NCBI GenBank assembly: GCA_050012135.1
Contig: JBEKHT010000008.1
Location: forward strand, 3,773 to 67,772
Length of the DNA stretch: 64,000 nt
Direction of reading: 5' to 3'
Source: Anaerolineales bacterium
Lineage (GTDB): Bacteria; Chloroflexota; Anaerolineae; Anaerolineales; RBG-16-64-43
The stretch's first letter is position 1, and each line of letters starts with the position of its first letter. Below, piece by piece: positions 5,811 to 38,389 of this stretch. A model generated the notes under the pieces. It had not been told where the DNA came from, searched no databases, and saw only the letters and a list, made by a program, of their open reading frames with translations. Both the position numbers and the translations under genes were made by a program.

Positions 5811-5856
5811 CTTTTCCGAACCCTCGTCCACCTCCAGGAATTCGAGGAATAGGGCC

Positions 5857-21245: not shown

Positions 21246-22130
21246 GTGACAGCCAAGATCATTGACGGAAAGGTGATCGCGGAGCAGGTCCGGGGGGAGG
21301 TGGCCAATGAGGTAAGACAAATGGTGGCCCAAGGATTGCCTCGGCCTGGTCTGGCGACCGTGTTGGTCGGCGACAACCCGGCTTCGGTAAGCTACGTTCG
21401 CAGCAAGCAAAAAGCGTGCGCGGAGCTGGGCATCGAGTCCTTTGGACACAATCTGCCCGCGAGCACGTCGCAGCAAGAGCTTGAGGATCTGCTGGGCAAG
21501 CTGAATGCCGATTTGAGGGTGAATGGCATCCTGGTCCAGTTGCCCCTGCCTTCCGGGCTTGATGAGGAACGCGCCCTCAGTGTGATCAGCATCAACAAGG
21601 ATGTGGATGGGTTTCATCCCATCAATGTAGGACGTCTAGCCATGAAGCGCAGAGACCCCGTTTTCGTCCCCTGCACGCCGGCGGGAGTGATCGTTCTGTT
21701 GGAACGCTCGGGCGCGAAGTTCTCGGGCGCGCGGGCGGTTGTGCTGGGTCGCTCGAATATTGTCGGAATGCCGGCGGCGCTCCTTCTGGTTCGCGAGAAC
21801 GCGACCGTGACGATCTGTCATTCCAAGACCCTCAACTTGCCCGAGGTGGTCGGTCAGGCTGACATTCTGGTGGCGGCAATCGGCAAGGCTCATTTTGTGC
21901 GCGGCAGTTGGGTCAAGCCGGGGGCCTTTGTGATTGATGTGGGAATCAATCGGGTCGAGGATCCCTCCACCAAAGCGGGCTATCGGCTTGTGGGCGACGT
22001 GGCATTTGACGAAGTCAAGGAGGTAGCGGGTGCGATTTCGCCTGTCCCGGGAGGGGTGGGCCCGATGACGATTGCCATGCTTATGAAGAACACGGCCCGC
22101 GCGGCTCGGCTGGCGGCGGTGAAGGGATAA
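21246..22130 (+). CDS. folD: Bifunctional methylenetetrahydrofolate dehydrogenase/cyclohydrolase
   Basis: AKIIDGKVIA...ATVLVGDNPAS.SYV..K, VDGFHPINVG, VVLGRSNIVGMP, PVPGGVGPMT. GTG at 21246 is preceded by GAGGAGGA. Confidence 0.92.
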   Translation: MTAKIIDGKVIAEQVRGEVANEVRQMVAQGLPRPGLATVLVGDNPASVSYVRSKQKACAELGIESFGHNLPASTSQQELEDLLGKLNADLRVNGILVQLPLPSGLDEERALSVISINKDVDGFHPINVGRLAMKRRDPVFVPCTPAGVIVLLERSGAKFSGARAVVLGRSNIVGMPAALLLVRENATVTICHSKTLNLPEVVGQADILVAAIGKAHFVRGSWVKPGAFVIDVGINRVEDPSTKAGYRLVGDVAFDEVKEVAGAISPVPGGVGPMTIAMLMKNTARAARLAAVKG

Positions 22131-22268
22131 GTCGCTGCTGCCATGTGGGAAAGCGCGCGGGCTGCTCGCGGGAGGGGGTGTTGAAGAAAGGTTGTATGAT
22201 GTCCGACAAGGCCTCTCGGCCCTCCTGAGACCTTGCCCTTGCTCGCGCTGCCTGAGTGAGCCAAGAAT

Positions 22269-23633
22269 ATGACCACTCTTCTGGTACGGCATGCGGATGT
22301 GCTGGTCACGATGGATGACGACCGCCGCGAGATCCGGGATGGCGGGCTGTTCATCCGGGATGGCTGGATTGAAATGGTCGGCGTGTCGGGGGAGCTTCCC
22401 CACGCCGCGGATGAAACCCTCGACCTGAGGGGCCACGTGCTGCTCCCGGGATTGGTGAATGCTCATCATCATCTCTACCAGACCCTTACGCGAGCCCTGC
22501 CCGCGGCGCAAGATGTAGACCTTTTCCACTGGCTGAGAACTCTTTACCCGATCTGGGCTCGACTCACTCCGGAAGCAATCCAAGTCTCAACCCAAGTAGG
22601 CCTAGCAGAGCTCGCGCTGTCGGGCTGCACCACGGCCTGCGACCATCTCTACCTCTTTCCGAATGGGGCACACTTGGACGACGAAATTGAGGCAGCCCTT
22701 CCGGTCGGATTGCGCTTTCATGCCTCCCGAGGCTCGATGAGCCTGGGGGAATCGCAGGGAGGCCTGCCACCCGATCGGGTCGTGGAAAAGGAGGAGGCGA
22801 TTCTGAAGGACACCCAACGCCTCATCGAGGGCTTTCACGACCCTCAGCCGGGCGCCATGTTGAGAATTGTTGTGGCTCCCTGCTCCCCCTTTTCGGTAAC
22901 GGCCGATCTGATGCGAGAGGCGGCCGCGCTCGCGCGCTCGGCCGGGGCCAGGCTGCATACTCACTTGGCGGAGACCTTGGACGAAGAGCGTTTCTGCTTG
23001 GAACGGTTCGGGCGCCGGCCGGTTGACTATGCCGAGGAGTTGTCCTGGTTGGGGGAAGATGTGTGGTTCGCTCACGGGGTGCACGTCAATCGCGAAGAGG
23101 CGGCAAGGCTGGCTCGGTCCGGATCGGGAATAGCCCATTGTCCCTCGTCGAACATGCGCCTGGCCTCGGGGATTGCCCCGGTGGATGAATACCTCCGCTG
23201 CGGCGTAAAGCTGGGCCTGGGGGTGGATGGTTCCGCGAGTAACGACAGCTCCCACCTCCTAGCCGAGGCTCGGCAAGCGATGCTCCTGGCACGCCTGTCG
23301 GTGGCCGTACGGGGTTCCGGCGGACCCTTGCTGAGCGCGCGCCAAGCGCTGGAGTTGGCGACGCGTGGGGGGGCGGAAGTCCTGGGCCGTTCTGACATCG
23401 GCCAGCTGGCGCGAGGGAAGTGCGGGGATTTTGTTGCCTTTCGGCTGGACCGCTTGGACTACGCGGGCGCGCTAGAAGACCCTGTCGCCGCCCTGGTCTT
23501 TTGCTCCCCGTGCCAAGCCGATGTCACGGTGGTTAATGGCCGGTTTGTGGTAAAGGAAGGGCGTCTGACCACCCTTGACTTGCCGATGCTGGTGGAGAGG
23601 CACAATCGAATCGCCAACGCGCTCTTGGGGTAG
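22269..23633 (+). CDS. 8-oxoguanine deaminase-like amidohydrolase (guanine/isocytosine deaminase clade, SsnA-related)
   Basis: LPGLVNAHHHLYQTLTR, LYPIWARLTPE, SGCTT..DH.YLFP, HTHLAETLDEE, HCPSSNMRLASGI, GVDGSASND. Closely colinear with my recollection of Pseudomonas 8-oxoguanine deaminase. Confidence 0.82.
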   Translation: MTTLLVRHADVLVTMDDDRREIRDGGLFIRDGWIEMVGVSGELPHAADETLDLRGHVLLPGLVNAHHHLYQTLTRALPAAQDVDLFHWLRTLYPIWARLTPEAIQVSTQVGLAELALSGCTTACDHLYLFPNGAHLDDEIEAALPVGLRFHASRGSMSLGESQGGLPPDRVVEKEEAILKDTQRLIEGFHDPQPGAMLRIVVAPCSPFSVTADLMREAAALARSAGARLHTHLAETLDEERFCLERFGRRPVDYAEELSWLGEDVWFAHGVHVNREEAARLARSGSGIAHCPSSNMRLASGIAPVDEYLRCGVKLGLGVDGSASNDSSHLLAEARQAMLLARLSVAVRGSGGPLLSARQALELATRGGAEVLGRSDIGQLARGKCGDFVAFRLDRLDYAGALEDPVAALVFCSPCQADVTVVNGRFVVKEGRLTTLDLPMLVERHNRIANALLG

Positions 23634-23654
23634 TGTGGCTGAAGGAGCTGAGCG

Positions 23655-25436
23655 ATGAGAGACGAATTCTCTTCCCGGCGGCTGGTCGATTGCGCGATGG
23701 GAAGGCTGGCGGCGGACCTGTTGATTCATCAAGGCCAGTGGGTGTCGGTCCAATCAGGCGAAATCGTGCCAGGCACAGACGTCGCCGTTCTGGGTGCCCG
23801 CATTGCCTATGTCGGTCCGGACGCAAGCCACTGCATCGGACCCAACACGCAGCTGATCGAGGCCCGAGGGCGGTTTCTTGTTCCCGGGTTGATTGAGGGT
23901 CATGTCCACGTCGAATCGGGAATGGTCACCATCAGCGAGTTCGTGAATGCCGTGCTGCCCCACGGCACCACCGCGATGATGATTGACCCTCACGAGATTG
24001 CCAACGTCTTTGGACTGCAAGGCGTGCGCACGATGGTGGACGAGGCTGCCGTCCAGCCCATTCACGTATGGGTCCAGATGCCTTCCTGCGTGCCTTCCGC
24101 TCCTGGGATGGAAACGCCGGGGGCCAACATCGGGCCCGCTGAAGTCGCGGAGGCCATGACTTGGCCAGGCATCATCGGTCTGGGGGAGGTCATGAACTTC
24201 CCGGCGGTTGTGGATGGGGACGAGAAGATCCATGCCGAGATGGACGCGGCACGGCATGCGGGCAAGGTGATTGGGGGCCATTACCCCTCCCCGGATCTGT
24301 CTCTGCCGTTCCACGGCTATGCCGCCGGGGGGCCCGAGGATGACCACGAGGGGACTCGCGCGGAGGATGCCGTCGCCCGGGTCCGACAGGGAATGCGTGC
24401 GATGCTGCGGTATGGGTCGGCCTGGCATGATGTGGAGGCCCAGGTCAAGGTCATCACCGAGCAGAATCTGGATCCTCGGCACTTTCTTCTGGTCACAGAC
24501 GACGCTCACGCGGGCACCCTGGTGGGTGAGGGCCACATGGATCGGGTAGTTCGGCATGCTGTGAAATGTGGTCTGGCCCCCCTGGTCGCCCTCCAGATGG
24601 CGACCCTGAACGCCGCAGAGCACTTCGGCGTCAGCCATGAGATCGGCCAAATTGCCCCCGGGCGGTATGCCGACATCCTCCTGGTGGGAGATCTGGAAGC
24701 GATGGATGTGCAACTCGTTATTGTGGGAGGCGTTCGGGCGGCCGAGGAGGGCAAGATGCTCCTTCCGCCGTCCGGGTTCCGATATCCTTCAAAGTATCGG
24801 CGCTCGGTTCATCTCATTCGCAATCTGGTGCCGGAGGATTTTGCTGTCCGATCGCGGGCGAAGGCTGTCACGGAAGCTCATGTGATCGGCGTCATTGAGA
24901 ATCAGGCACCCACGCGACACCTGCGCTTGCCGCTCCGGGTTCAGGAGGGTCTGGTTCAGATCCGCCCAGATGGCGAGGTCGCCAAGGTGGGCTTGGTCGA
25001 GCGCCATCTTCGGACGGGCAGAATCCAAGTTGGATTCGTGCACGGCTTTGGCTTCAACGTGCCCTGTGCGGTGGCTTCGACCGTGGCGCATGATTGCCAC
25101 CACTTGCTGGTCGTCGGCACGGATGACTCGCAGATGGCCATGGCGGGCAATGCCCTTGCCAAGCTCGGTGGCGGAATCCTGGTAGTCCGAGAGGGCAAGG
25201 TGCGGGCCGCGGTGGAACTCCCGATCGCAGGGCTCATGTCAGAGGAGCCCGCGGGCGATGTCGCCCACAAGATGTCGGCCGTTCTGGAAGAGTTTCGGGC
25301 CTGTGGTTGCCGGATGGCCAATGCGAACATGCAGCTCAGTCTCCTGGCCTTGGTCGTGATCCCCGAACTGCGCATCTCCGATCTGGGCCTGGTGGATGTG
25401 GAACGGTTTGAATTCGTCCCCGCGGTGGAAGGTTAG
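23655..25436 (+). CDS. ade: Adenine deaminase
   Basis: 593 aa. VPGLIEGHVHVESGM, TTAMMIDPHEIANV, and a two-domain length typical of Ade. Confidence 0.87.
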   Translation: MRDEFSSRRLVDCAMGRLAADLLIHQGQWVSVQSGEIVPGTDVAVLGARIAYVGPDASHCIGPNTQLIEARGRFLVPGLIEGHVHVESGMVTISEFVNAVLPHGTTAMMIDPHEIANVFGLQGVRTMVDEAAVQPIHVWVQMPSCVPSAPGMETPGANIGPAEVAEAMTWPGIIGLGEVMNFPAVVDGDEKIHAEMDAARHAGKVIGGHYPSPDLSLPFHGYAAGGPEDDHEGTRAEDAVARVRQGMRAMLRYGSAWHDVEAQVKVITEQNLDPRHFLLVTDDAHAGTLVGEGHMDRVVRHAVKCGLAPLVALQMATLNAAEHFGVSHEIGQIAPGRYADILLVGDLEAMDVQLVIVGGVRAAEEGKMLLPPSGFRYPSKYRRSVHLIRNLVPEDFAVRSRAKAVTEAHVIGVIENQAPTRHLRLPLRVQEGLVQIRPDGEVAKVGLVERHLRTGRIQVGFVHGFGFNVPCAVASTVAHDCHHLLVVGTDDSQMAMAGNALAKLGGGILVVREGKVRAAVELPIAGLMSEEPAGDVAHKMSAVLEEFRACGCRMANANMQLSLLALVVIPELRISDLGLVDVERFEFVPAVEG

Positions 25437-25478
25437 GGGGCAAACCGACCACGAGGGTTGGCCGGGCGGCGCTCATGA

Positions 25479-26215
25479 CAAAACAAGAAGAGGTTCGGGC
25501 CGATCCCCGACCTCTCTGCGCGGGCTGGAAAGCGATTGCCGGGCGAGCCGGACCTGGCTAGGCAGATGGGCGTCAGTCGCGCGACCCTGCGCGGGGCCAT
25601 GCGCGCATTGGCTCAGAAGGGGGGAATTATTCGTCGCCTAGGAGTTGGAACGTTCGTCGTTGCCAAGCGCGCGTTCTTGGACGATGGGCGGGAGGTCCGG
25701 GAGAGCCCGCCAAGCATCGCGCGGCGAAATGGGCTCACGCCAGTCATGGGGAATCACCGCTTGGAGGAACGGGGTGCGACCGCCCGCGGGGCAAGGCACT
25801 TGGGCCGGAGCTAGGGTCCGCGGTTCTGGTGGCCTCCCGAACCATGCTGGTCGAAGGGAGCCCTGTGGCCTTTCTGGTAGACGTGGTGCCGGCCGCGCAC
25901 CTCAGCGGCTGCGACTTCCGTTCCTTCTGCGGCTCAGGCTTGGACCTGCCGGTTGGGCGCGGGGATCCCGGACTTGCTTATTTGGGGACGCGGCTTGGGG
26001 CAGAGCTGAGCGCGGGTGAGATTCGGCGCCGACTCAAGCGGCGGGAGCCGCATGCGCTGCTCAGGCTGGAGGCCGAACTGTTCAGTCTGGAGGACGAGGT
26101 AGTGGACGATTCGGCGAGTCACTTTGTCCCGGAATCCTTCCACTTCCACAACAACCGACGGGTCAATGCGATTCCGGCGGCCGCATGGGAAAGGACTACC
26201 GGCCTGGCGGGCTAA
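25479..26215 (+). pseudogene. GntR/HutC-family regulator (wHTH plus UTRA) disrupted by a frameshift and lacking a clean start
   Basis: Frame 0 encodes RLPGEPDLARQMGVSRATLRGAMRALAQKGGIIRRLGVGTFVV (GntR HTH) and stops at 25812-25814. The UTRA-like remainder (...LGPELGSAVLVASRTMLVEGSPVAFLVDVV...) continues in another frame to 26215. The switch lies near 25780-25800, next to a G-run. The only upstream ATG (25475) is out of frame. Confidence 0.6.
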
Positions 26216-26303
26216 GAGAGAGCAGATCTTGCGCATAGGGTCTGGCGCGTGATCGGCTGTTGGTCCTTTTCTCGCGAATCTTGAAACAGGAGGAGACAAT
26301 CCA

Positions 26304-27257
26304 ATGCGCAGTTTTCTGGGACGCGACATCCTTTCGCTGAAGGATTTCGAGCGGGAGGAATTCTTCCGGGTATTCCAAGTTGCCAAAGAGTTGGAGCCCA
26401 TTGCTCGGGACCGTAGGAACAGCGACATGCTGCGTCATAAGATCCTGGTCACGGCGTTCTACCAGCCCAGCACACGCACGCGGTTGGCTCACGAGGCAGC
26501 GATGCACCGTCTGGGAGGCCATGTGACCGGCTTCGCGGACGCTAAGATGACGCGGGCTGGGGACTTCTACCAGGAGTCTATCAAAGACACGGTTAAGATG
26601 CTGGAGTTCTATGGGGACGTCATCGTCATGCGCCACTTTCAACAGGGAGCTCCTCACGAAGCGGCCCGCTGGGCATCGATTCCGGTCATCAACGGCGGAG
26701 ACGGCTGGGGCGAACATCCGACCCAAATCCTGACGGATCTATATACCGTCCTGCAAGAAAAGGGCCGAATCGACGGGCTGAACTGGCTGGCGGTGGGCGA
26801 CATGCGAATGCGCACCATGCACTCGTTGGCGTATGCTCTGACCCAGTTTGATTGCCCCATCACTTTCGTGGCTCCGGCGGAGATGACTCTCACCCCAGAG
26901 TTCAAGGACGAGCTGGAGAAGTACAGCCTCAACTTTTCGGAGGCGGACCACGTCGAGAAGGTGATCGGCAAGGCGGACGTGATCCTGGTAGAGCCCGTGG
27001 TCCAACCGGACTACACCAAATCGCGAGACGAGCGCACCGGAAGCGTGGGCCTGACCCCCGGTAATTACAAGATCACGCGGGAGTTGCTGTCCTCGAAAGC
27101 CAAATCGGATGCCATCCTCCTGCATTCCCTTCCGCGCATGGACGAGATCCCAACCGACGTGGACATCACTCGGTGGTCCCGCTACTGGCAGGAGGCTTTC
27201 AACGGGGTGGTGATGCGCATGGCTCTGCTCGCTCTGATCTTGGGTGCGGTCGAATAG
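26304..27257 (+). CDS. ATCase-like carbamoyltransferase with divergent second-substrate motifs
   Basis: Colinear with E. coli PyrB as recalled: FYQPSTRTRLAHE, VMRH, GEHPTQILTDL, GDMRMRTMHSL, LHSLPRMDEIPTDVD. However, the KK of the 80s loop is replaced (TRAGDFYQE) and TRVQKER is replaced by EPVVQPD. AGGAGGA RBS. Confidence 0.85.
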   Translation: MRSFLGRDILSLKDFEREEFFRVFQVAKELEPIARDRRNSDMLRHKILVTAFYQPSTRTRLAHEAAMHRLGGHVTGFADAKMTRAGDFYQESIKDTVKMLEFYGDVIVMRHFQQGAPHEAARWASIPVINGGDGWGEHPTQILTDLYTVLQEKGRIDGLNWLAVGDMRMRTMHSLAYALTQFDCPITFVAPAEMTLTPEFKDELEKYSLNFSEADHVEKVIGKADVILVEPVVQPDYTKSRDERTGSVGLTPGNYKITRELLSSKAKSDAILLHSLPRMDEIPTDVDITRWSRYWQEAFNGVVMRMALLALILGAVE

Positions 27258-27376
27258 AACCGGGAAACCAAGGCGGGCTGGGCGGCCGGGGTCGCGTCAA
27301 CCCCCGGGGGCCGGCGGGTCCCATGGCTGGAGGCGGGCCGCGTGGGGGCTTTGCAGGTAGTCCTGGAGAGGATGCA

Positions 27377-28354
27377 ATGCAGACACACCTGAAGGGGCGC
27401 GATCTGATCAGTGATCTGGATTTCAGCCGGGAAGAGGTCGAAACCGTGCTGGATGTGGCCTTCGACCTCAAGCGCAAACGGGCGCTGGGCGAACCTCATC
27501 CCATCTTGCGCGACAAGGTCCTGGCGATGCTTTTCTTCTTCAGCAGCACGCGCACACGCGGGTCCTTCGAAGCGGGGATGGCTCAACTGGGGGGGCACGC
27601 AGCCTTCATCGAGAGCCGGACGACCCAGATCGCGCATGGCGACACCCCCAAGGAGATTGGTGAGATTTTTGGGCGATATTTCGATGGCATTGCCATCCGG
27701 CACGTGGACTGGGGTGTCGGGAACGGATATCTCAGAGAGGTCGCCCGCGCCTCCCGAGTCCCGGTGCTGAACATGCAGTGTGACATCTACCATCCGTTCC
27801 AGATTCTGGCGGATCTGATGACGATCGTGGAGAAGAAGGGTCGGGACCTGCGCCACAAGAAGATGGTGGTTTCTTGGGCCTATGCGGCCTCGTATCAGAA
27901 GCCGATGTCGGTTCCTCAATCGCTCATCCTGCAGATGCCGCGCTTCGGATTGGACGTGGTCCTGGCACACCCGCCGGAGTTCCGCTTGATGCCGGAGATC
28001 GTCAGCCAGGCCAGGGAACAGGCCAAGGAATTCGGGGCTGGTTTTGAAGTCGTGGACGACATGGAAGCGGCTTTCCGGGATGCGGACATCATCTACGCCA
28101 AGTCCTGGGGGGCATTGGTCCACACGCCCGACCCGGATGAGGGTGCTAGAATCATTCAGAAGTACCCGCATTGGATCACCGACGAGAGGAAGATGGCCCT
28201 CGCCAAAAAGGATGCCATCTACATGCACCCCCTGCCGGCCGACCGCAACATCGAAGTCACCGACGGCGTGATGGACGGACCGCATTCGGTCGTCTATGAT
28301 GAGGCCGAGAATCGCTTGCACGCCCAGAAGGCGGTCATGGCTCTGACGATGTAG
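27377..28354 (+). CDS. Knotted-type carbamoyltransferase (AOTCase/SOTCase/YgeW clade), substrate unassigned
   Basis: FFFSSTRTR, YHPFQILADL, DIIYAKSWGAL, ITDERKMAL, MHPLPADRN, DEAENRLHAQKAVMA. These match my recollection of Xanthomonas N-acetylornithine transcarbamylase and its relatives. ATG at 27377 follows GGAGAGGA; the track ORF start at 27173 is spurious. Confidence 0.85.
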   Translation: MQTHLKGRDLISDLDFSREEVETVLDVAFDLKRKRALGEPHPILRDKVLAMLFFFSSTRTRGSFEAGMAQLGGHAAFIESRTTQIAHGDTPKEIGEIFGRYFDGIAIRHVDWGVGNGYLREVARASRVPVLNMQCDIYHPFQILADLMTIVEKKGRDLRHKKMVVSWAYAASYQKPMSVPQSLILQMPRFGLDVVLAHPPEFRLMPEIVSQAREQAKEFGAGFEVVDDMEAAFRDADIIYAKSWGALVHTPDPDEGARIIQKYPHWITDERKMALAKKDAIYMHPLPADRNIEVTDGVMDGPHSVVYDEAENRLHAQKAVMALTM

Positions 28355-28360
28355 GAGAGA

Positions 28361-29329
28361 GTGTCGATGAGCGGGCCAAGCAAGAAAGTCGCCGTCGTTG
28401 CCATTGGCGGCAACTCGCTGATCCGGGACCCGAAACGCGTCTCGGTGGAAGACCAGGAGGATGCGTTGCGGGAGACCGCTCGCCATATTGTCGACATGGT
28501 CGCGGCCGGATGGGACGTGGCCATTGGGCATGGCAATGGACCTCAGGTCGGCTTCATCCTGCGGCGCTCGGAGATTGCGGCCAAGGCCGAGGGGATGCAC
28601 GAGGTTCCGCTGGACGTGTGCGGGGCCGACAGCCAAGGGGCGATCGGGTACGAATTCCAGCAGGCGCTGCAAAACGAACTCTTTCGTTGCGGCATCAAGA
28701 AGAACGTGTGCACCGTGATCACCCAAACCCTGGTGGATAAGGACGACCCGGCCTTCCAGAATCCGAGCAAACCTATCGGCAGCTTCATGGAGGAAGACGA
28801 GGCGAGGCGTCGTGAGAGAGAAATGGGCTGGAGTGTGGTTGAGGATGCCGGGCGGGGCTGGAGGCGCGTGGTAGCCTCCCCGTTGCCCAAGGAGATCGTC
28901 GAGCTGGATTCGGTCCGGACGCTGATCCACGCGGGCGTTCTGGTCATCACGGTGGGGGGCGGCGGTATCCCGGTCATTGATGCGGGCGGCGGCCAATATC
29001 GTGGCACGGCCGCTGTCATTGACAAGGACTTCGGCTGCAGTCTGCTCGCGCGCGAAATCAAGGCGGACCTTTTCCTGATCGCTACGGCCGTCGAGAGAGT
29101 CGCCCTCCATTTCGGGCAGCCCGACCAGAAATGGCTTGAGCGGATGACTTTGGCCGAGGCCAAACGGTATCTGGCCGAAGGGATACACTTTGCCAAAGGC
29201 TCCATGGCCCCCAAGATCCAGGCGATCATCTGGTACTTGGAAGCCGGTGGCAAACAGGCGCTGATCACCAACCCGGAGAATATCGGCCGGGCCTTGGATG
29301 GGAAGACGGGCACATGGATCGTGCCCTGA
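28361..29329 (+). CDS. arcC: Carbamate kinase
   Basis: KVAVVAIGGNSL, GHGNGPQVG, DKDF, MAPKI motifs. About 320 aa. Confidence 0.9.
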   Translation: MSMSGPSKKVAVVAIGGNSLIRDPKRVSVEDQEDALRETARHIVDMVAAGWDVAIGHGNGPQVGFILRRSEIAAKAEGMHEVPLDVCGADSQGAIGYEFQQALQNELFRCGIKKNVCTVITQTLVDKDDPAFQNPSKPIGSFMEEDEARRREREMGWSVVEDAGRGWRRVVASPLPKEIVELDSVRTLIHAGVLVITVGGGGIPVIDAGGGQYRGTAAVIDKDFGCSLLAREIKADLFLIATAVERVALHFGQPDQKWLERMTLAEAKRYLAEGIHFAKGSMAPKIQAIIWYLEAGGKQALITNPENIGRALDGKTGTWIVP

Positions 29330-29480
29330 CTTCTGCGACCGAGGGCCGGACAGAATCGAGTCGAGTGCAACTATGGTATTTCTGAGCGGACCGCGGAAAG
29401 GAGGTGACGGGGAAGGCAAGAATCCTTTCGTGTTTGGCGACCATGAGTTGTTCACCGATTTCTAGTGACCCTAAAGGAGG

Positions 29481-30836
29481 ATGAACGTGATCCGTAAAGC
29501 GCTCAAGTACATCGCCTTACCGGGCATGGCACTCGTGTTCGTGCTGACGGCCTGCGGACCTGCTGCCACGCCGACCGCCGCTCCCGCCCCAGCGGCCACC
29601 TCGGCGCCCGCCGTGGTCCCGACTTCGGCGCCGACCGTGGCACCCACCGCCGCTGCCACAGCAGCTGCAACGGTTGCTGCTGCGGCCGCGCCGACCGCGA
29701 CTTTGGCTCCTGTGGGAACTGCATTCCCATCTGGCCAGATGTTCACCATCGGTATGATTCTGGTTGGTCCCTACAATGACTCGGGTTGGAGCCAGGCTAC
29801 CTACGAAGGTGGCGAGTATGCAATTGCTAATGTTCCCAATACCAAGCTGATCTATATCGACAACGGCTTCAGCCATCAGGGCTCGACACCGGCCCAGCTG
29901 GCCGAGCAGCTGCTGGCGAAGGGTGCCAACATGATCATCTTCAACTCGGATGATTTCAAGGATGAGTCCAATACCTTCGCCAAGAACCATCCGACCATCC
30001 CGACCATCATGCTTTCGGGCGATCAGTCCTGGGCGCAGGGTCAGGCGTATCTGATCCTCCCCAACATGGCCAACATCATGGGCAAGATGGAGTACATGAA
30101 GATGCTCGCGGGATGCGCGGCCGCCATGACCACCCAGACCGGCAAGATCGGCTACCTGGGTCCGCTGATCAACGACGAAACCCGCCGCCTGTCCTCTTCC
30201 GCCTACCTGGGCGCCAAATACTGCTGGACCAATGTCCTGAAGAAGGATCCGTCGGCGCTGCAATTCCAGGTGACCTGGATCGGATACTGGTTCAACGAAC
30301 CTGGCACGACGCTGGATCCGACCAAGGTCGCGGATGCCTTCTTTAACACCGGCTTTGATGTGGTCATGTCGGGCATTGACACTTCCGAGGCGGTGGTCGA
30401 GGCGAAGAAGATGACCGGGGCCGGCGAGAAGGTCTATGCCGTTGGCTATGACTACAAAGGCAACTGCAGCGCAGGTCCGTCGGTCTGCCTGGGCGTTCCC
30501 TATTTCAACTGGGGCCCGGGGATCGCGGCCGAGGTCAAGAAGGCGATGGCGGGCACTTTCACCCAGGACTGGCAGTGGTTGGGCCCGGACTGGACGAACA
30601 TCAATAATCCGGATACCAGCAATGTCGGCTTCGTGAAGGGCCAGGCTCTCAGCCCGGCTGCCTCTGCTGCGGTCGATCAGCTGACCGCTGCCCTGGCGGG
30701 CGGCCTGGATCTTTGGACCGGCCCGTTGAGCCTGCAGGATGGGACCCAGTACCTGGGATCTGGCGTGGCCGCCACCCCGCAGCAGCTCTGGTACCTGCCG
30801 CAACTGCTCCTGGGCATGGCCGGCAGCAGCAAGTAA
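29481..30836 (+). CDS. BMP-family (PnrA/Med-like) ABC transporter substrate-binding lipoprotein
   Basis: Lipobox VLTAC followed by a long Ala/Pro/Thr linker. IGMILVGPYNDSGWSQATYEGG is typical of basic-membrane-protein nucleoside-binding proteins. Confidence 0.87.
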   Translation: MNVIRKALKYIALPGMALVFVLTACGPAATPTAAPAPAATSAPAVVPTSAPTVAPTAAATAAATVAAAAAPTATLAPVGTAFPSGQMFTIGMILVGPYNDSGWSQATYEGGEYAIANVPNTKLIYIDNGFSHQGSTPAQLAEQLLAKGANMIIFNSDDFKDESNTFAKNHPTIPTIMLSGDQSWAQGQAYLILPNMANIMGKMEYMKMLAGCAAAMTTQTGKIGYLGPLINDETRRLSSSAYLGAKYCWTNVLKKDPSALQFQVTWIGYWFNEPGTTLDPTKVADAFFNTGFDVVMSGIDTSEAVVEAKKMTGAGEKVYAVGYDYKGNCSAGPSVCLGVPYFNWGPGIAAEVKKAMAGTFTQDWQWLGPDWTNINNPDTSNVGFVKGQALSPAASAAVDQLTAALAGGLDLWTGPLSLQDGTQYLGSGVAATPQQLWYLPQLLLGMAGSSK

Positions 30837-30854
30837 CCATTCCTGATACTGATG

Positions 30855-30884
30855 ATTGGGGGAAGGCAGGCGCCTTCCCCCAAT
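30855..30884 (+). terminator. GC-rich hairpin downstream of the substrate-binding-protein gene (possible attenuator or partial terminator)
   Basis: ATTGGGGGAAGGC (30855-30867), a 4-nt loop, then GCCTTCCCCCAAT (30872-30884): a perfect 13-bp stem. The weak T-tract (TCTTAA) keeps confidence limited. Confidence 0.4.
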
Positions 30885-31111
30885 TCTTAAGCACCTGACA
30901 CAGGGGTGCAATCGTTTGTCCGGAAGGGATGCCGATCGTGAGGTAGGATAAATGCAGCAGTTCTGAGCCGAAGCCGGTATACCAAGGGCGCAAGAGGGCT
31001 GGAGCTTGAGAGGCAGTCGTCACACAAGTAAAAGGTTCTCGCCTCCCGCTCGCGAAGAGATCCAGGGACCCCTCCAAATGAACCAACAGTTCGCCATTCA
31101 GGGAAAGAACC

Positions 31112-32623
31112 ATGAACGTTGAACTCAAGGACATCCATAAGACATTCGGTGCGGTGCATGCCAACGCGGGCATCAGCATGGACATCCCGGGAGGGACGAT
31201 CCAGGGCATCCTCGGGGAGAACGGTGCGGGCAAGAGCACCCTGATGAAGATCTTATCCGGATTTATTCGGGCGGACCAGGGCGAAATCCTGCTCGACGGC
31301 CACCCGGTTTCCATTCATTCACCTGCCGATGCCATTCGGAATGGGGTGGGCATGCTCCACCAGGATCCGCTGGATTTCCCCCCGTTACGCGTCATCGATA
31401 ATTTCATCCTGGGCCGATCCGGCGGCCTGCTGCCCGGAGAGGGCGCAGCCCTGCAGGACTTCAAGAAGCTGGCCGGACAGTTCGGCTTCTCCTTGGACCC
31501 GCAGGCTTACGTGGATTCGCTGACCGTCGGGGAACGCCAGCAGCTGGAGATCCTGCGTTTGATCTGGCTGGGCGCCCGGGTGCTGATCTTTGACGAACCC
31601 ACCACCGGCATCAGCGCGCAGCAGAAAGTGAAACTCTTCGCAGCCCTGCGCCTGCTGGCCAAGCAGGGCATGACTGTGTTGTTCGTCTCACACAAGCTGG
31701 AGGACGTCGAAGGGCTGTGCGACAGCGTGGTGGTCCTGCGCCAGGGATACCTGGTTGGCAGCGTCAAACCCCCTTACGACACCCACCAGCTGGTTGAGAT
31801 GATGTTCGGCAAGGAGGTCACGTTGGGGGCGCGCAGCGCTGGTTGCGCGGGTGAGGTGGCCTTTTCCCTGCGCAACCTAGCTGTTGAGGATTACCGCCTG
31901 CACATTGGCGAGATCAACCTCGACATTTGCCACGGCGAGGTAATCGGCCTGGCCGGCATGGAAGGGAGCGGCCAGGCGCTTTTTCTGCGGGCGGTTGCTG
32001 GCCTGGTGCGGACGGTCGGCGGGCAGATCCTGCGGGGCGACCGGGATTTAACCGGCCGCAACTATCATTTCTACAAGCGGGGCGGGGTGGCGTTCTTACC
32101 CGCCTCCCGCCTGGAGGAAGGTTTGGTGGCTGGACTGAACCTGACCGAGCATGTCATTCTGGCGGAAGAGGCCACAGGTTTTTCCATTAATTGGGAAAAG
32201 GGCCGCCAGCTGGCGCAGAGCCGCATCACGGAATTCAATATTCATGGTACGCCGGTCAACACCGTCGAATCGCTGTCGGGGGGTAACCAGCAGCGGACCT
32301 TGCTGGCCCTGATGCGGGTCCCGCTCGATCTGATGCTACTGGAACACCCGACGCGCGGGCTGGACATCGAGTCTACCATTTATATCTGGAATAAGCTCAA
32401 GGAACGCTGCCAGCAGGGAACGTCGATCCTGTTTGTTTCTTCTGACCTGGATGAGATCCTGCAGTACAGTGATCGGGTGCTGGTCTTCTTCAGCGGCCGG
32501 GTGACGCCTCCATTGGATGTCTCGACATTAACTACGGAGAAACTCGGCGAGTTGATCGGCGGTATGGGCTGGCCGGAATCAAAGAACGAGGCAAGCGTCC
32601 ATGAAAGAAAACCAGTGGCTTAA
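31112..32623 (+). CDS. ABC transporter ATP-binding protein (tandem ATPase domains, sugar/nucleoside type)
   Basis: GENGAGKST Walker A, LSGGNQQR and LTVGERQQ signatures, two NBDs in 503 aa. Confidence 0.9.
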   Translation: MNVELKDIHKTFGAVHANAGISMDIPGGTIQGILGENGAGKSTLMKILSGFIRADQGEILLDGHPVSIHSPADAIRNGVGMLHQDPLDFPPLRVIDNFILGRSGGLLPGEGAALQDFKKLAGQFGFSLDPQAYVDSLTVGERQQLEILRLIWLGARVLIFDEPTTGISAQQKVKLFAALRLLAKQGMTVLFVSHKLEDVEGLCDSVVVLRQGYLVGSVKPPYDTHQLVEMMFGKEVTLGARSAGCAGEVAFSLRNLAVEDYRLHIGEINLDICHGEVIGLAGMEGSGQALFLRAVAGLVRTVGGQILRGDRDLTGRNYHFYKRGGVAFLPASRLEEGLVAGLNLTEHVILAEEATGFSINWEKGRQLAQSRITEFNIHGTPVNTVESLSGGNQQRTLLALMRVPLDLMLLEHPTRGLDIESTIYIWNKLKERCQQGTSILFVSSDLDEILQYSDRVLVFFSGRVTPPLDVSTLTTEKLGELIGGMGWPESKNEASVHERKPVA

Positions 32624-33638
32624 GATCGGTTTTCAACTGGCAGCGATCGTCCTGGCGCTGCTCTTTACTACCCTGGTCCTGTTGATGGCCGGCGCGTCGC
32701 CGCTGCAGGCCTACCTGAATGTGCTTGAGGGCATTTTCAGTTCCACCGCAGACATCACCAATGTCCTGGCCGCCTGGATTCCCCTGCTGCTGACCACCTC
32801 CGGTGTGCTGATCACCTTCGCGGCCGGCCTGTGGAATATCGGCATCGAGGGGCAGATCATGCTCGGAGCGGTCTTCACGACAGGAGCGCTGCGCCTGCTG
32901 GAGAACAGTTCGCTGGTCGGAGGATGGATCATCCTGCTCGGTTTTCTGGCGGGCCTGCTGGGCGGAGCCTTATGGGGGGCGCTGGCAGGCGTGCTGAAGA
33001 CCTTCGGCGGGGTCAATGAGATTTTTGGCGGGCTGGGGTTGAATTTTGTGGCCACCGCCTTCGCGCTCTACCTGATCATTGGCCCGTGGGGGCGGCCGGG
33101 AATTGCCTCGACAAGTGGGACCCTGCTCTTTCCGACCAGGCTCTGGTTGCCAACCCCGACCAACGTGGCACTCAGCCCCTGGGCATTGGTGGTGGGCATC
33201 CTGTCGGCCGTGCTGGTCTATTTCCTGTTGCGTGGAACCTACTTCGGTCTGCGCCTGAAAGCGGTGGGCAAGAACATGCGGGCAGCCTTTCTGCTGGGGG
33301 TCCCGACCTGGCAGTACAGCATGTACGCGTTCCTGCTGTGCGGCGCCTTCGCCGGCCTGGCGGGCGCGGTTCAGGTCACCGCTGTCTATCACCGCCTCAT
33401 TCCGACCATTTCAAGTGGGTATGGCTTCCTGGGCTTGTTGGTGGCCATGCTGATCAACTACCAGGCGATCTGGGCTGCACCCATTGCCCTGTTCTACGCA
33501 GCTTTGAACATTGGCGGCATTCAGCTGCCGATCGTGATGAAAATGGACTCATCCCTTTCGGGCGTACTGCAGGGGATCCTCGTCCTGTTCGTTTTGATGG
33601 TCGAGGGCGCCCGCCAGCGACTGTTTGAGAAACGATAG
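32601..33638 (+). CDS. ABC transporter permease (BMP/sugar-type)
   Basis: Multi-TM protein of 345 aa. Its start overlaps the ATPase gene. Confidence 0.85.
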   Translation: MKENQWLKIGFQLAAIVLALLFTTLVLLMAGASPLQAYLNVLEGIFSSTADITNVLAAWIPLLLTTSGVLITFAAGLWNIGIEGQIMLGAVFTTGALRLLENSSLVGGWIILLGFLAGLLGGALWGALAGVLKTFGGVNEIFGGLGLNFVATAFALYLIIGPWGRPGIASTSGTLLFPTRLWLPTPTNVALSPWALVVGILSAVLVYFLLRGTYFGLRLKAVGKNMRAAFLLGVPTWQYSMYAFLLCGAFAGLAGAVQVTAVYHRLIPTISSGYGFLGLLVAMLINYQAIWAAPIALFYAALNIGGIQLPIVMKMDSSLSGVLQGILVLFVLMVEGARQRLFEKR

Positions 33639-33647
33639 GTAGGGACT

Positions 33648-34646
33648 ATGACTTCCATAGGTCTTCTGATTAGTCTGGCAGGAATCCTGTACGGTGCGGC
33701 CCCGATCATGTTCGGAGTGATCGGCGAGACGATCACCGAACGGGCTGGCATCATCAACCTCTCCATGAACGGGACCATCCTGCTCTCGGCCATGGTCGGC
33801 TTTGCCGTAGCGTACGGGACCGGCAGCCTCCTCCTTGGCTTCCTGGCCGGCGCATTGATTGGCGGCCTTGTAGCGCTGGTCGTCGCATTCAGCAGCATCG
33901 CCCTCAAGCAGTCCCAGGTGGCGGTGGGCTTCGTGCTGGCCGTGCTCTGCCTTAATCTTTCGTATTTCCTCGGTCATGCGTATATCAGCAAGAACGGTCC
34001 AAGCATGAACATCCTCCCCATCGCAGGGCTGGACAAGATCCCCATTCTGGGAACGTTATTCTTTAGACAGGATTTGATGACCTACTTCAGTTTTGTGATC
34101 ATCTTCCTGACCTGGTTTTGGATCTACCGGACCCGCCCGGGGTTGATGCTGCGCGGGATCGGGGAACGCCCGGCCGCGGCCTATGTGCGCGGGGCGGATG
34201 TTAACCGCCTGCGCTACATCTATACCTTCCTGGGTGGGGCGATCGCAGGATTGGCGGGCCCGACCTTTTCCCTGGATGTTAAAGCCGGGTGGGCGGGACA
34301 GCTTTCCGGTCTGGATGGCTACGGCTGGATCGTCCTTTCGATCACCATCTTCGGCGGCTGGAATCCATTCCGAGCGGCCTTCGGAGTGTACCTGTTCTCC
34401 TTCCTGCAGTGGCTCGGCCTCGTGCTGCAGCCTGTCTTGCCCAACATCCCGACCCAGGTGCTGCAGGTGGCACCTTTCCCGCTCATGATCCTGACCCTGC
34501 TGCTGGTCAACATTGGGAATGCCGAATGGATCAATCGCATGATGGCCACCTTGCCTGAAGGGACCCGGCGGCTGGTAGCCCGCCTTTTGCGGGCTTTGCG
34601 CGCCTCGCCGCCGGCCTCGCTGGGCGTTCCCTTCGACAGCGAATGA
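33648..34646 (+). CDS. ABC transporter permease (BMP/sugar-type)
   Basis: Multi-TM protein of 332 aa, 9 nt after the previous permease. Confidence 0.85.
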   Translation: MTSIGLLISLAGILYGAAPIMFGVIGETITERAGIINLSMNGTILLSAMVGFAVAYGTGSLLLGFLAGALIGGLVALVVAFSSIALKQSQVAVGFVLAVLCLNLSYFLGHAYISKNGPSMNILPIAGLDKIPILGTLFFRQDLMTYFSFVIIFLTWFWIYRTRPGLMLRGIGERPAAAYVRGADVNRLRYIYTFLGGAIAGLAGPTFSLDVKAGWAGQLSGLDGYGWIVLSITIFGGWNPFRAAFGVYLFSFLQWLGLVLQPVLPNIPTQVLQVAPFPLMILTLLLVNIGNAEWINRMMATLPEGTRRLVARLLRALRASPPASLGVPFDSE

Positions 34647-34878
34647 CGGATGACCGGACTGCCCGTGTCCGGCTGGCCGAAGAACCCAACAAGCCGTGAA
34701 TAGAGACCCTGCCGGTTGAGGCCAATGCAGTGCGCGTTCGGCCGAGGGCGGCTTTGTGCGCTCGCAGCGTCTTTTTCCTGGAAGTGCGGGTCGCCGATCT
34801 TGGGCCCCGCAGGCGCGGCGGAGACCCGGCCTGGCCACGACAAGTGCTCGTGACCATTCCGGTGAAAAGAGGAAACGC

Positions 34879-36132
34879 ATGAACTTCCTGGGTTACCGCT
34901 GTTCGAGATGCTCGCGGGAGTACTCGCCGGGAGAAGCAACCTACCTCTGTCCCGCCGATGGCGGGAACCTCGATGTGGTACTCGACTACGATAAGCTGCG
35001 GACCGGGGTCGATCCACGCGAGCTTGAAACCTCGCCCCAGCGGTCTTTGTGGAGGTACCAGAGGTTGCTCCCCGTGGAAAACCTGGGCGAAGAGCGCACG
35101 CCCATGGGGGCGGTCGGCTGGACTCCCGTCTACGATGAGCCGGCCCTTGCCAGAGAACTTGGCCTTGGCCAATTGTGGCTGAAGGATGAAGGCCGCAACC
35201 CGACGGGCTCTCTCAAAGACAGGGCCAGCGCGGTCGTGCTCGCTCGCGCGAAAGAGATTGCGGCCAAGGTAGTCGTCACGGCCTCAACCGGGAACGCGGG
35301 TGCGGCCCTGGCCGGGTTAGCCGCTGCCTGCGGCCAACGGGCTGTTATCTTTGCACCAAGGGGTGCGCCCCCGGCCAAGGTCGCGCAGCTTCTGATCTAC
35401 GGGGCCACCGTCTTGCTGGTGGAGGGGAATTACGACCAGGCCTTTGACCTCTCCATTGAGACAGCCAACGAATTTGGATGGTATTGCCGCAACACGGGGT
35501 ATAACCCTTTCACCGTGGAGGGGAAGAAGACCGCCGCCTATGAAATCTGGGAACAAGTCCTGGAGGCAGGAGCCTCGCCAAAGAGCGGCCTTCCGGTCCC
35601 GGCGGTTGTTGTGTCGGTTGGAGATGGAAATATCATCTCCGGTCTCTACAAGGGGTTCCAGGATCTGCAGGCTCTCGGCTGGCTGGACCGAGTTCCGCGA
35701 CTGTTCGGGGTTCAGGCGGAGGGCTCTGCCGCCATCGCCAATGCCTGGCGGCAGGGGAGCGAGCGGATCGTGCCCGTCGCGGCCAGGACCTTGGCGGACA
35801 GCATTTCGGTGGATCTTCCTCGCGATGGCGTGCGCGCCGTGCGGGCCGTGTCGCAGTCGGGAGGAGCTTGCCTGACGGTGAGCGATGCGGACATCCTGGG
35901 GGCTATGGCTGACCTCGGGCGGGTTGGCGTGTTTGCGGAGCCGGCCGCAGCCGCCGCCCATGCCGGTCTCAAACAAGCCGTTCGCGAGGGCAGGCTGGGA
36001 CGCGAGGACCGCGTGCTGGTGATCATCACCGGAAGCGGCCTCAAGGACGTCCGGGCTGCCTCTCAAGCGGTCGGGAAGGCGAAGGTCATCGAGCCCAGGC
36101 TCAAGGCGGTGAAAGTGGCACTGGGGCTGTGA
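34879..36132 (+). CDS. Threonine synthase-like fold-type-II PLP enzyme with N-terminal (partly degenerate) zinc-ribbon
   Basis: YRCSRCS...YLCPADGGNLDV, then NPTGSLKDRAS (PLP-Lys motif) and TASTGNAGAA. ATG at 34879; the track ORF start at 34756 is an Arg-rich extension. Confidence 0.8.
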   Translation: MNFLGYRCSRCSREYSPGEATYLCPADGGNLDVVLDYDKLRTGVDPRELETSPQRSLWRYQRLLPVENLGEERTPMGAVGWTPVYDEPALARELGLGQLWLKDEGRNPTGSLKDRASAVVLARAKEIAAKVVVTASTGNAGAALAGLAAACGQRAVIFAPRGAPPAKVAQLLIYGATVLLVEGNYDQAFDLSIETANEFGWYCRNTGYNPFTVEGKKTAAYEIWEQVLEAGASPKSGLPVPAVVVSVGDGNIISGLYKGFQDLQALGWLDRVPRLFGVQAEGSAAIANAWRQGSERIVPVAARTLADSISVDLPRDGVRAVRAVSQSGGACLTVSDADILGAMADLGRVGVFAEPAAAAAHAGLKQAVREGRLGREDRVLVIITGSGLKDVRAASQAVGKAKVIEPRLKAVKVALGL

Positions 36133-36206
36133 TGCGGATCAAAGTCAGTTCCTGGACCCGACCTCGGTCGCCCGGCTGACCTGTCCGGGGGCGTCAGGAC
36201 GGGTTG

Positions 36207-36253
36207 AAGAAGGACCGCTCTGCCCGAATCTGGTGGCAGAGCGGTCCCTTCTT
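36207..36253. terminator. Bidirectional hairpin between convergent genes
   Basis: AAGAAGGACCGCTCTGCC, a 10-nt loop, then GGCAGAGCGGTCCCTTCTT: an 18-19 bp stem with one bulge. It lies between the stop at 36132 (+) and the stop at 36276 (-). Confidence 0.55.
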
Positions 36254-36275
36254 ATCAAGGCGGCGGCCGAAGGCC

Positions 36276-37217: not shown

Positions 37218-37234
37218 CGGTCACAACCAAGGCA

Positions 37235-38311: not shown

Positions 38312-38389
38312 GGGGATGGGCGAAGCGCGCCCGGATGAAGGAGGGGCACGGCACGGCGCCGTGCCCCTCTCATTGGGACCGAAAGCACT

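Follow-up and report, generated by a model that had tools for sequence, protein, structure and literature searches.

Two atypical carbamoyltransferases and a carbamate kinase in a conserved Anaerolineae gene cluster, probably part of a variant anaerobic urate pathway

Analysis of a 64-kb stretch of DNA from an Anaerolineales bacterium (contig JBEKHT010000008.1; the whole stretch is called the window here and has a G+C content of ~63%) focused on a plus-strand module at positions 22269 to 36132. It comprises ten intact genes and one pseudogene, a decayed GntR/HutC regulator. Two carbamoyltransferase genes (here named CT1 and CT2) stand directly ahead of a carbamate kinase gene (CK), accompanied by genes for two deaminases, an ABC importer, and a pyridoxal 5'-phosphate (PLP) enzyme. 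Judged from the encoded sequences, the locus is probably a variant of the known anaerobic urate pathway with two new enzyme specificities. On balance, we favor the reading that it would cover uptake, deamination, and the final ATP-forming steps of a variant reductive purine/urate pathway, in which both ureido groups of 2,3-diureidopropionate would be removed with phosphate.

In the pathway described for E. coli and clostridia, urate is converted to 2,8-dioxopurine by XdhD-YgfM, YgfK or UacX then reduces the ring, and SsnA and then HyuA open the rings to give 2,3-diureidopropionate; YgeW takes one ureido group as carbamoyl phosphate, from which YqeA makes ATP, YgeY hydrolyzes the other ureido group, and YgeX converts diaminopropionate to pyruvate (PMC12507026; bioRxiv 10.1101/2025.04.24.650524). 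ATP formation from 2,3-diureidopropanoate was shown for E. coli YgeW together with YqeA (bioRxiv 10.1101/2025.04.24.650524). An earlier annotation of the window from the sequence alone (the original prediction) had proposed a catabolic, purine-linked module of thirteen consecutive genes paralleling the E. coli ygeW-xdhD gene set. All gene types it listed were found on the plus strand where it had placed them, but the number thirteen is reached only by counting the regulator fragments separately. The module contains the following features.

22269-23633, plus strand: amidohydrolase, 8-oxoguanine deaminase ortholog by sequence (NF006055, PDB 3HPA, PDB 7WW2)
23655-25436, plus strand: adenine-deaminase-like binuclear amidohydrolase (Adenine_deam_C, TIGR01178, PDB 3NQB)
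25437-26215, plus strand: remnant of a GntR/HutC (GntR+UTRA) regulator gene, a pseudogene (tblastn and blastx against intact orthologs)
26304-27257, plus strand: CT1, pseudo-aspartate carbamoyltransferase (pseudo-ATCase), that is, an ATCase-like carbamoyltransferase with an altered second-substrate site (OTCace_N, OTCace)
27377-28354, plus strand: CT2, probable short YgeW-type carbamoyltransferase of 325 amino acids (YgeW alignment)
28361-29329, plus strand: CK, carbamate kinase of the YqeA/ArcC type (NF009007, TIGR00746)
29481-30836, plus strand: Bmp/PnrA-family lipoprotein, substrate-binding protein of an ABC importer (Pfam Bmp, PDB 3S99)
31112-32623, plus strand: ATPase of the importer with two nucleotide-binding domains (Pfam)
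32601-33638 and 33648-34646, plus strand: BPD_transp_2 permeases of the importer (Pfam)
34879-36132, plus strand: threonine-synthase-like (ThrC-like) fold-type-II PLP enzyme (PALP, TIGR00260, PDB 2ZSJ)

The two carbamoyltransferases and the carbamate kinase

CT1 carries OTCace_N and OTCace domains, shares 39% identity with E. coli PyrB, and has no counterpart in E. coli. As a whole protein it passes the TIGR00670 cut-off for ATCases (256.8 versus 236.95), and automatic annotation would therefore mislabel it. The carbamoyl-phosphate motifs STRTR and HPTQ are retained, but the residues with which PyrB binds aspartate (K84 and R229-x-Q231) and the HPLP motif are not. The 80s loop reads GDFYQES, with K83/K84 of PyrB replaced; an insert of eight residues, EPVVQPDY, lies ahead of TKSRDER, where PyrB reads TRVQKER; and HPLP has become HSLP. 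HMMER and MAFFT place the CT1 residues of the insert-bearing segment differently, and RxQ appears in neither alignment. These motif changes are invariant in 65 orthologs. By its motifs, CT1 is a pseudo-ATCase without the aspartate-binding signature and not a biosynthetic PyrB.

Pseudo-ATCases were grouped by Barba et al. in 2013, with HSLP and VXP as the signature of group 3 and H[ST]LP as that of group 2 (PMC4016543). CT1 shows the group 3 signature, with STRTR, HPTQ, HSLPR, and the V-Q-P of EPVVQPDY, although where VXP falls varies with the alignment; the genes that accompany members of that group, a Na+ symporter and an asparaginase, were not found around CT1. The one assayed pseudo-ATCase phosphorolyzes the diureido acid allantoate (PMC4016543). 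In a search of 1.84 billion representative sequences, CT1 proved to belong to a compact family: only two full-length clusters were at least 70% identical, and the nearest other full-length clusters shared 43 to 50% identity. This family lies within a wider clade that shares the TRAGD[FY]Y loop and an xPxY insert, and true ATCases in the same match list keep KGE and TRIQxER.

CT2 scored below every NCBIfam cut-off for ornithine carbamoyltransferase (OTC; 258 of 306, also 249 of 281) and acetylornithine carbamoyltransferase (AOTC; 252 of 288), and also below those of two YgeW models (194.6 and 181.7 bits, with cut-offs of 453 and 500). Alignment with E. coli YgeW, ArgI, and PyrB revealed three motifs, QCDIxHPxQ, WAYxxSYxKPxSVPQ, and YxKSW, that are common to CT2 and YgeW alone, and an identity of 36% to YgeW over 350 amino acids. 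CT2 lacks the OTC motifs DxxxSMG and HCLP, reading YAKSWGAL and HPLP at these positions, and it has neither the terminal extensions nor two insertions of YgeW. The CT2 motifs are invariant in 75 orthologs. Since it shares motifs found only in YgeW and lacks those of OTCs, CT2 is probably a short YgeW-type enzyme and not ArgF.

The CK gene starts 6 nucleotides after CT2 and encodes a clear carbamate kinase (NF009007, 407 bits with a cut-off of 266; TIGR00746, 378 bits with a cut-off of 358) with 49% identity to E. coli YqeA. The proposed parallel to ygeW/yqeA is supported, for CT2 by identity and motifs and for the kinase by its closeness to YqeA. As the original prediction required, neither transcarbamylase is a canonical PyrB or ArgF, given motif changes that do not vary among orthologs.

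Conservation in Anaerolineae and neighboring urate pathway genes

Using CT2 as the query, we collected its 80 best matches with their surrounding loci in different Anaerolineae genomes and clustered the open reading frames (ORFs) of these loci into families. The gene order folD, deaminase, deaminase, regulator, CT1, CT2, CK, binding protein, ABC importer, PLP enzyme recurs in dozens of these genomes, and the arrangement is more than chance. The regulator, CT1, CT2, and CK form the conserved core, and the genes nearly always follow the order seen in the window. Two cultivated species, Levilinea saccharolytica (L049) and Thermanaerothrix solaris (L062; L numbers are our locus labels), have the full arrangement as well. 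The frequencies among the 80 loci were as follows.

Transcarbamylases: 80/80
Carbamate kinase: 72/80
GntR+UTRA regulator directly upstream of CT1: 60/80
Permeases: 56/80 (55 to 56 with the ATPase)
ABC ATPase: 55/80
Bmp binding protein: 50/80
Adenine-deaminase-like gene: 49/80
ThrC-like PLP gene: 44/80
8-oxoguanine-deaminase-like gene: 37/80

In some loci the adenine-deaminase-like gene lies inside the operon, between CK and the binding protein gene. Median identity to the window proteins was 85% for CT1 and 88% for CT2, compared with 60 to 70% for most neighbors and ~75% for the kinase; selection of loci by CT2 inflates the absolute CT2 value but not the contrast with neighbors in the same genomes.

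Genes known from the urate pathway adjoin the core in part of these genomes. At least one hallmark gene (SsnA, YgfK, YgeY, or the xanthine dehydrogenase [XDH] family) was found within 10 kb of the core in 18 of the 80 loci. YgeY stands beside the core in seven loci (TIGR03526, 449 bits with a cut-off of 321). SsnA occurs in L048, L052, L068, L073, and L091 (NF005540, 563 and 526 bits with a cut-off of 444). YgfK is full length in L015 (TIGR03315, 917 bits with a cut-off of 835) and partial in L048, L036, and L050/51, and a DHO_dh (UacX-like) gene is present in L048. XDH-family genes were detected in nine loci, and XdhC and MocA in L081/82. Particularly compact orders are those of L048 (regulator-CT1-CT2-CK-ThrC-like-VanZ-CysK-like-hydrolase-SsnA-x-DHO_dh-YgfK), L073 (XdhD-type-CT2-SsnA), and L040 (YgeY-CT2-CK, without CT1). 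That the core adjoins SsnA, YgfK, and YgeY genes passing their cut-offs, as well as XDH-family genes, supports the assignment of the module to purine catabolism.

The window itself holds a second relevant locus at its left end, which the original prediction had regarded as the likely partner of the module.

256-1725, plus strand: XDH-family FAD and 2Fe-2S fusion protein (Pfam)
1722-2081 and 2217-2579, plus strand: two small ORFs of 119 and 120 amino acids, without a confident Pfam match (one weak match to Yip1)
2583-4811, plus strand: XDH-family molybdenum (Mo) subunit of 742 amino acids, not of the XdhD type (Pfam)
~4992-5810, plus strand: YqeB (TIGR03309, 305.7 bits with a cut-off of 220; 46.5% identity to E. 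coli YqeB)
~5857-7194, plus strand: YqeC-MocA fusion (TIGR03172, 166.7 with a cut-off of 73; TIGR03310, 147.5; 31% identity to E. coli YqeC)
7191-7847, plus strand: second MocA-like (NTP_transf_3) gene with an in-frame TAA at 7482-7484 (YERFGMT-stop-SAQVG)

The XDH/YqeB/YqeC locus (256-7847) could be verified: YqeB and YqeC pass their cut-offs, MocA is present, and the stretch 4956-7847 on the plus strand consists of genes for selenium/molybdenum cofactor maturation. The equation of its XDH with XdhD did not hold. The window enzyme remains below all equivalog cut-offs (best match pucD, 551 of 784), and its Mo subunit is only 30% identical to XdhD and lacks the XdhD-specific insertion carrying Glu606, a residue tied to 2,8-dioxopurine formation by Li et al. 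2025 (PMC12507026). It belongs to a different lineage, and an XdhD-type enzyme is encoded just beyond the left edge of the window. We read this flank from contigs with identical proteins (L086/L087/L088, positions 1-9997), which extend immediately left of window position 1. It encodes CofC, an F420-type luciferase-like oxidoreductase (LLM; 333 amino acids, ~78 to 80% identical across Anaerolineae), a 4HBT thioesterase, a YgfM-like FAD subunit of 270 amino acids, an XdhD-type Fe-S and Mo protein of 1,022 amino acids after it (39% identity to XdhD, Glu606 insertion present), a membrane protein of 296 amino acids without a Pfam match, and XdhC. In a sister species, the 10 kb upstream of this block carry the F420 biosynthesis genes Fno, CofE, and CofD and a purine nucleoside phosphorylase gene. 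Thermanaerothrix daxensis has the order SsnA-Fno-CofE-CofD-CofC-LLM-FAD-XdhD-XdhC-XDH-YqeB-YqeC, an arrangement in keeping with the Chloroflexota variant to which Li et al. 2025 briefly refer (PMC12507026).

Two details of the XDH locus were also observed. A small ORF lies at the same position in Thermanaerothrix daxensis, so the small ORFs at 1722-2081 and 2217-2579 may be conserved accessory subunits. The second MocA-like gene is probably a pseudogene copy, because the same short call of 97 amino acids recurs on contigs from other samples.

Additional genes were noticed at or near the core of related loci. A 126-amino-acid four-helix-bundle gene is inserted within CT1-CT2-CK, in the CT1/CT2 or the CT2/CK gap, in 14 related genomes (among them L004, L006, L009, L014, L015, L017, L019, L022, L039, L046, L052, L067, and L068) and is missing from the window; the L068 copy matches Pfam 23S_rRNA_IVP (PF05635). 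Eleven other loci carry a membrane protein gene of 691 amino acids between CT1 and CT2, sometimes with a glycosyltransferase-like gene. In 25 of the 80 loci, a CysK/CBS-like PLP protein of 488 amino acids, with no copy in the window, is encoded after the ThrC-like gene or after the cluster (e.g., L044 19378-20844, L014 12759-14297, and L048 13799-15259); in compact clusters its gene lies between the ThrC-like gene and SsnA/YgfK. The protein matches PALP with 59 bits and is far under all cysteine synthase cut-offs.

Deaminases, regulator, importer, and PLP enzyme

The first amidohydrolase (22269-23633) matched the NF006055 model "8-oxoguanine deaminase" with 687 bits (cut-off of 532), shared 62% identity (607 bits) with PDB 3HPA, which we take to be an 8-oxoguanine deaminase, and reached 563 bits against PDB 7WW2, deposited as "8-oxoguanine deaminase". 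Its HxH, HTHLAE, and DGSASND motifs are kept in 36 orthologs. By sequence it is an 8-oxoguanine deaminase ortholog, with urate, or xanthine from guanine, as the predicted product, and the family named in the original prediction was correct. Its use as an equivalent of SsnA was not borne out (SsnA model, 119.8 bits with a cut-off of 444; 24% identity to E. coli SsnA). We also considered the enzyme as a substitute for SsnA; the 62% identity to 3HPA and the co-occurrence of both enzyme types in Thermanaerothrix species ruled this out.

The second amidohydrolase (23655-25436) is a probable adenine deaminase, which would convert adenine to hypoxanthine. It matched Pfam Adenine_deam_C with 186 bits, lay exactly at the border of TIGR01178 (472.7 versus a cut-off of 472.5), scored 350 of 768 against the E. 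coli-type adenine deaminase model, and reached 267 bits against the Agrobacterium adenine deaminase PDB 3NQB. The HxH, HE, E, H, HE, DD, and HD motifs, presumably the metal ligands of 3NQB, are kept. As such ligands fit deamination and ring opening alike, this enzyme may also have a role in ring opening.

The regulator had been described as broken, and this was confirmed. The pieces at 25527-25781 and 25793-26167 match intact orthologs in two frames, with the N terminus in a third segment (tblastn and blastx), which amounts to at least two frameshifts; the ORF fragments have no Pfam match, and an intact ortholog carries GntR and UTRA domains. The same broken sequence, 99.7 to 100% identical, is present in three independent metagenome assemblies, indicating a fixed pseudogene and not a sequencing error. 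With its HutC-type repressor gene decayed, the operon may be expressed constitutively in this species.

A BMP-family ABC importer is present as predicted, with a lipoprotein, an ATPase, and two permeases. The binding protein (29481-30836) has a signal peptide and a lipobox-like LTAC, shares 48% identity with the C-terminal half of a double-Bmp protein encoded in L017, and matches Pfam Bmp weakly (52.7 bits) and PDB 3S99, a "basic membrane lipoprotein", with an E value of 2e-11. The best NCBIfam matches of the ATPase and permeases are Bmp-type "putative B6" transporter components, all under the cut-off.

The PLP enzyme matched PALP with 253 bits, PRK08197 with 268 of 303, and TIGR00260 at the border (170.8 versus 167.1); its best PDB match was the ThrC structure 2ZSJ (178 bits). 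The original prediction had aligned it with YgeX, which did not stand: the enzyme reached 58.9 bits against PRK08206 (cut-off of 276), shared 32% identity over only 112 amino acids, and is ThrC-like. It also departs from threonine synthases at presumed phosphate-binding residues. In place of the ThrC motifs STGNT(S) and NPxR it has STGNAG and NPFT, as do ~40 of 42 orthologs; the Thr of STGNT and the Arg of NPxR presumably bind the substrate phosphate in Thermus ThrC. These altered motifs point to a new specificity, for which we propose a 2,3-diaminopropionate or ureido-alanine lyase.

Several details of the gene map can be added. CT2 starts at 27377, preceded by a GGAG-like ribosome-binding sequence, and not at the GTG at 27173; the PLP gene starts at 34879 and not at 34756, in agreement with public gene calls on the same contig. 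Over a compared length of 21 kb, the window shows 100% identity to a JGI metagenome contig of 358 kb (3300038418 Ga0427942_000022), and its encoded proteins have matches in metagenome-assembled genomes of Anaerolineales (Chloroflexota). Two minus-strand ORFs opposite the CT2, kinase, and binding protein genes (27182-29455, 757 amino acids, and 29517-30911, 464 amino acids) were rejected as high-GC artifacts, because the plus-strand genes have Pfam matches and a higher G+C content at third codon positions and the antisense ORFs have no family matches. An Rfam scan of the whole window yielded no riboswitches or other RNA families, and a promoter and terminator scan of 21000-37000 gave counts not above those of shuffled sequence. 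An Opp/Dpp-type ABC system (a binding protein and two permeases; 36276-40117, minus strand), with no adjoining ATPase genes, converges on the PLP gene.

Proposed pathway, alternative explanations, and biological meaning

In the pathway we propose, the Bmp-type importer would take up purine bases or nucleosides, and the adenine deaminase and the 8-oxoguanine/guanine deaminase would yield hypoxanthine and urate or xanthine. The selenium-dependent XDH-family enzymes at 256-7194 and in the left flank would interconvert hypoxanthine, xanthine, urate, and 2,8-dioxopurine. The ring would then be reduced, probably by the F420-type luciferase-like enzyme of the left flank, and opened. CT2 would phosphorolytically remove one ureido group of 2,3-diureidopropionate and CT1 the other, replacing or working beside the hydrolase YgeY. 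Carbamate kinase would convert each carbamoyl phosphate to ATP, CO2, and NH3, so that a purine would yield as many as two ATP and not just one, and the ThrC-like enzyme would turn 2,3-diaminopropionate into pyruvate and ammonia as an analog of YgeX. By analogy, an ATCase-like enzyme would suit an alpha-ureido acid, since the one assayed pseudo-ATCase cleaves allantoate, and a YgeW/OTC-like enzyme would suit a terminal ureido group. We only tentatively extend this to a fully phosphorolytic purine pathway, a version that seems to us possible but rather doubtful, in which CT1 and CT2 would each yield carbamoyl phosphate, a ThrC-derived lyase would stand in for YgeX and an F420 reductase for YgfK, and hydantoin opening would fall to an enzyme other than HyuA, possibly the adenine-deaminase-like amidohydrolase.

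Several observations weigh against the pathway proposed above. No hallmark gene lies within 10 kb in 62 of the 80 loci, and these loci, all from Anaerolineae and picked by CT2 similarity, are not independent samples. SsnA, YgfK/UacX, HyuA, YgeY, and the CysK-like gene are not encoded in the window, the lack of hyuA, ygeY, and ygfK equivalents having already been noted in the original prediction; HyuA was absent from all 91 loci examined as well (tblastn with E. coli HyuA). SsnA was not found in the 7.4 kb left of the window or in a further 10 kb in the sister species, which leaves ring opening in this organism unaccounted for. Six loci hold YgeY plus both carbamoyltransferases, so that CT1 is no mere substitute for YgeY. 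The substrates proposed for CT1, CT2, the PLP enzyme, and the binding protein are deduced from motifs and gene neighbors. The order in which CT1 and CT2 would act cannot be fixed either, because the two 2025 papers disagree on the ureido group taken by YgeW: one has the 2-ureido group removed to give albizziin, the other the 3-ureido group to give 3-amino-2-ureidopropanoate (PMC12507026; bioRxiv 10.1101/2025.04.24.650524).

The most serious alternative, although we judge it unlikely, is that the module degrades another imported ureido compound by phosphorolysis and carbamate kinase, the purine deaminases and XDH being mere neighbors. Candidates would be pyrimidine-derived N-carbamoyl-beta-amino acids, hydantoin-derived N-carbamoyl amino acids, or a citrulline-like compound. 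The 62 loci without a nearby hallmark would fit this, as would the weak match of the binding protein (52.7 bits), which does not point to a particular ligand; group 3 pseudo-ATCases, with the HSLP/VXP signature of CT1, stand beside hydantoin-type genes in marine bacteria according to Barba et al. (PMC4016543), and there is a proposal of catabolic transcarbamylases that act on pyrimidine products (PMC4581275). Yet the pathway-specific neighbors are all specific to purines or urate (SsnA, YgfK, YgeY, XdhD-type, XdhC, and MocA), the deaminase genes keep synteny with the core in 37 to 49 loci, the adenine-deaminase-like gene sometimes inside the operon, and CT2 has the substrate-side motifs of YgeW. 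We consider an allantoate-type route less probable still. CT1 would then act like the Rubrobacter ureidoglycine carbamoyltransferase (allantoate + Pi -> ureidoglycine + carbamoyl phosphate), CT2 would take the second ureido group from ureidoglycine or oxalurate, and the kinase would form ATP. The demonstrated phosphorolysis of allantoate by a pseudo-ATCase (PMC4016543), the two ureido groups that allantoate likewise bears, and a supply of urate by 8-oxoguanine deaminase and XDH speak for it; however, CT1 has HSLP and VQP in place of the HPLA and AIA/AIS/SIA of the allantoate-active group 1 (PMC4016543), and CT2 resembles YgeW. Genes for uricase, allantoinase, allantoicase, and ureidoglycolate dehydrogenase and AllFGH-type genes were all missing from the recurrent neighbor families of the 80 loci, to which annotation was confined. 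The hosts are anaerobes, in which oxygen-dependent urate oxidation is unlikely, and this too counts against allantoate.

A purely biosynthetic explanation, with the transcarbamylases as the PyrB and ArgF of the host, the kinase supplying carbamoyl phosphate as in some archaea, and an incidental clustering with purine genes, is very improbable. The TIGR00670 score of CT1, the public annotation of CT2 as "ornithine carbamoyltransferase", and the strong conservation of both (74 to 91% identity, compared with 60 to 70% for most neighbors and ~75% for the kinase) would agree with it. Against this stand the loss of K84, the RxQ context, and HPLP in CT1 and of DxxxSMG and HCLP in CT2, which scores below all OTC/AOTC cut-offs, and the constancy of these changes in the 65 and 75 orthologs, respectively. 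HutC-type regulators mostly control catabolic operons; the genes lie behind such a regulator, next to kinase, importer, and deaminases, and in no case do they adjoin pyrC/pyrI or arg genes. The motifs and the gene context led us to reject the housekeeping reading.

The variant purine/urate pathway that we favor can be compared with known systems. As in the E. coli/Clostridium urate cluster, carbamate kinase directly follows a transcarbamylase that resembles YgeW; YqeB, YqeC, and MocA accompany XDH-family enzymes; genes for a purine deaminase and for putative purine uptake are nearby; a fold-type-II PLP enzyme stands at the end; and SsnA, YgfK, and YgeY passing cut-offs occur beside the same core in related Anaerolineae. 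It differs by the second, ATCase-like transcarbamylase, by the shortness of CT2 and its 36% identity to YgeW, by the lack of HyuA in the 91 loci and of SsnA, YgfK, and YgeY in the window, by a ThrC-like enzyme instead of YgeX, by Bmp-type ABC uptake instead of NCS2 permeases, by a HutC-type regulator instead of the sigma-54 activator YgeV, and by an F420-type luciferase-like reductase where YgfK/UacX would be expected. The parallel to the E. coli gene set stands for YqeA, YqeB, YqeC, and MocA and probably for YgeW, whereas the equivalences of SsnA, YgeX, and XdhD fall.

CofC, LLM, YgfM-like, and XdhD-type genes left of the window resemble the Chloroflexota SsnA/F420 luciferase-family clusters of Li et al. 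2025 (PMC12507026); that paper covers SsnA neighborhoods only and not the separate CT1-CT2-CK-transporter-ThrC-like operon, and SsnA was not found at the equivalent position in the lineage of this organism. Barba et al. assigned the ureidoglycine carbamoyltransferase Rxyl_2847 to group 1 and a Nocardioides JS614 protein, encoded beside a ygeW homolog, xdhABC, and hyuA, to group 2 (PMC4016543). Like group 3, CT1 retains STRT and HPTQ but carries HSLP where HPLP would stand and V-Q-P where RxQ would stand; it shares with group 2 an adjoining YgeW-type gene and nearby XDH genes, and with group 1 an adjoining carbamate kinase. It differs from group 3 in its lack of a Na+ symporter/asparaginase context. 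As in the arginine and agmatine deiminase pathways, where catabolic OTC or putrescine carbamoyltransferase (PTC) works with carbamate kinase, phosphorolysis of a ureido group would give carbamoyl phosphate and substrate-level ATP, but here there is no deiminase, the ornithine- or putrescine-binding motifs are absent, and two transcarbamylases share one kinase. In the literature searched, we found no description of this two-transcarbamylase arrangement.

The anaerobic urate pathway was elucidated as recently as 2025, and for gut Proteobacteria and Firmicutes alone. Anaerolineae, a widespread environmental class, appear to carry a rearranged version, whose key enzymes are too divergent for the identity filters of published surveys; one such survey required at least 63% identity to YgeW, compared with the 36% of CT2. 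The locus suggests testable substrates for two transcarbamylase families now mislabeled as PyrB/ArgF by annotation pipelines and for the ThrC-like enzyme, and the ATCase-like and YgeW-like enzymes side by side could bear on the dispute over YgeW regiochemistry. If the fully phosphorolytic version were true, the ATP yield would be doubled compared with E. coli, a family uncharacterized since 2013 would gain its first function, and purine fermentation would be a common energy source of Anaerolineae. These bacteria are abundant in digesters, sediments, and peat, and purines from decaying biomass may serve them as an ATP-yielding fermentation substrate.

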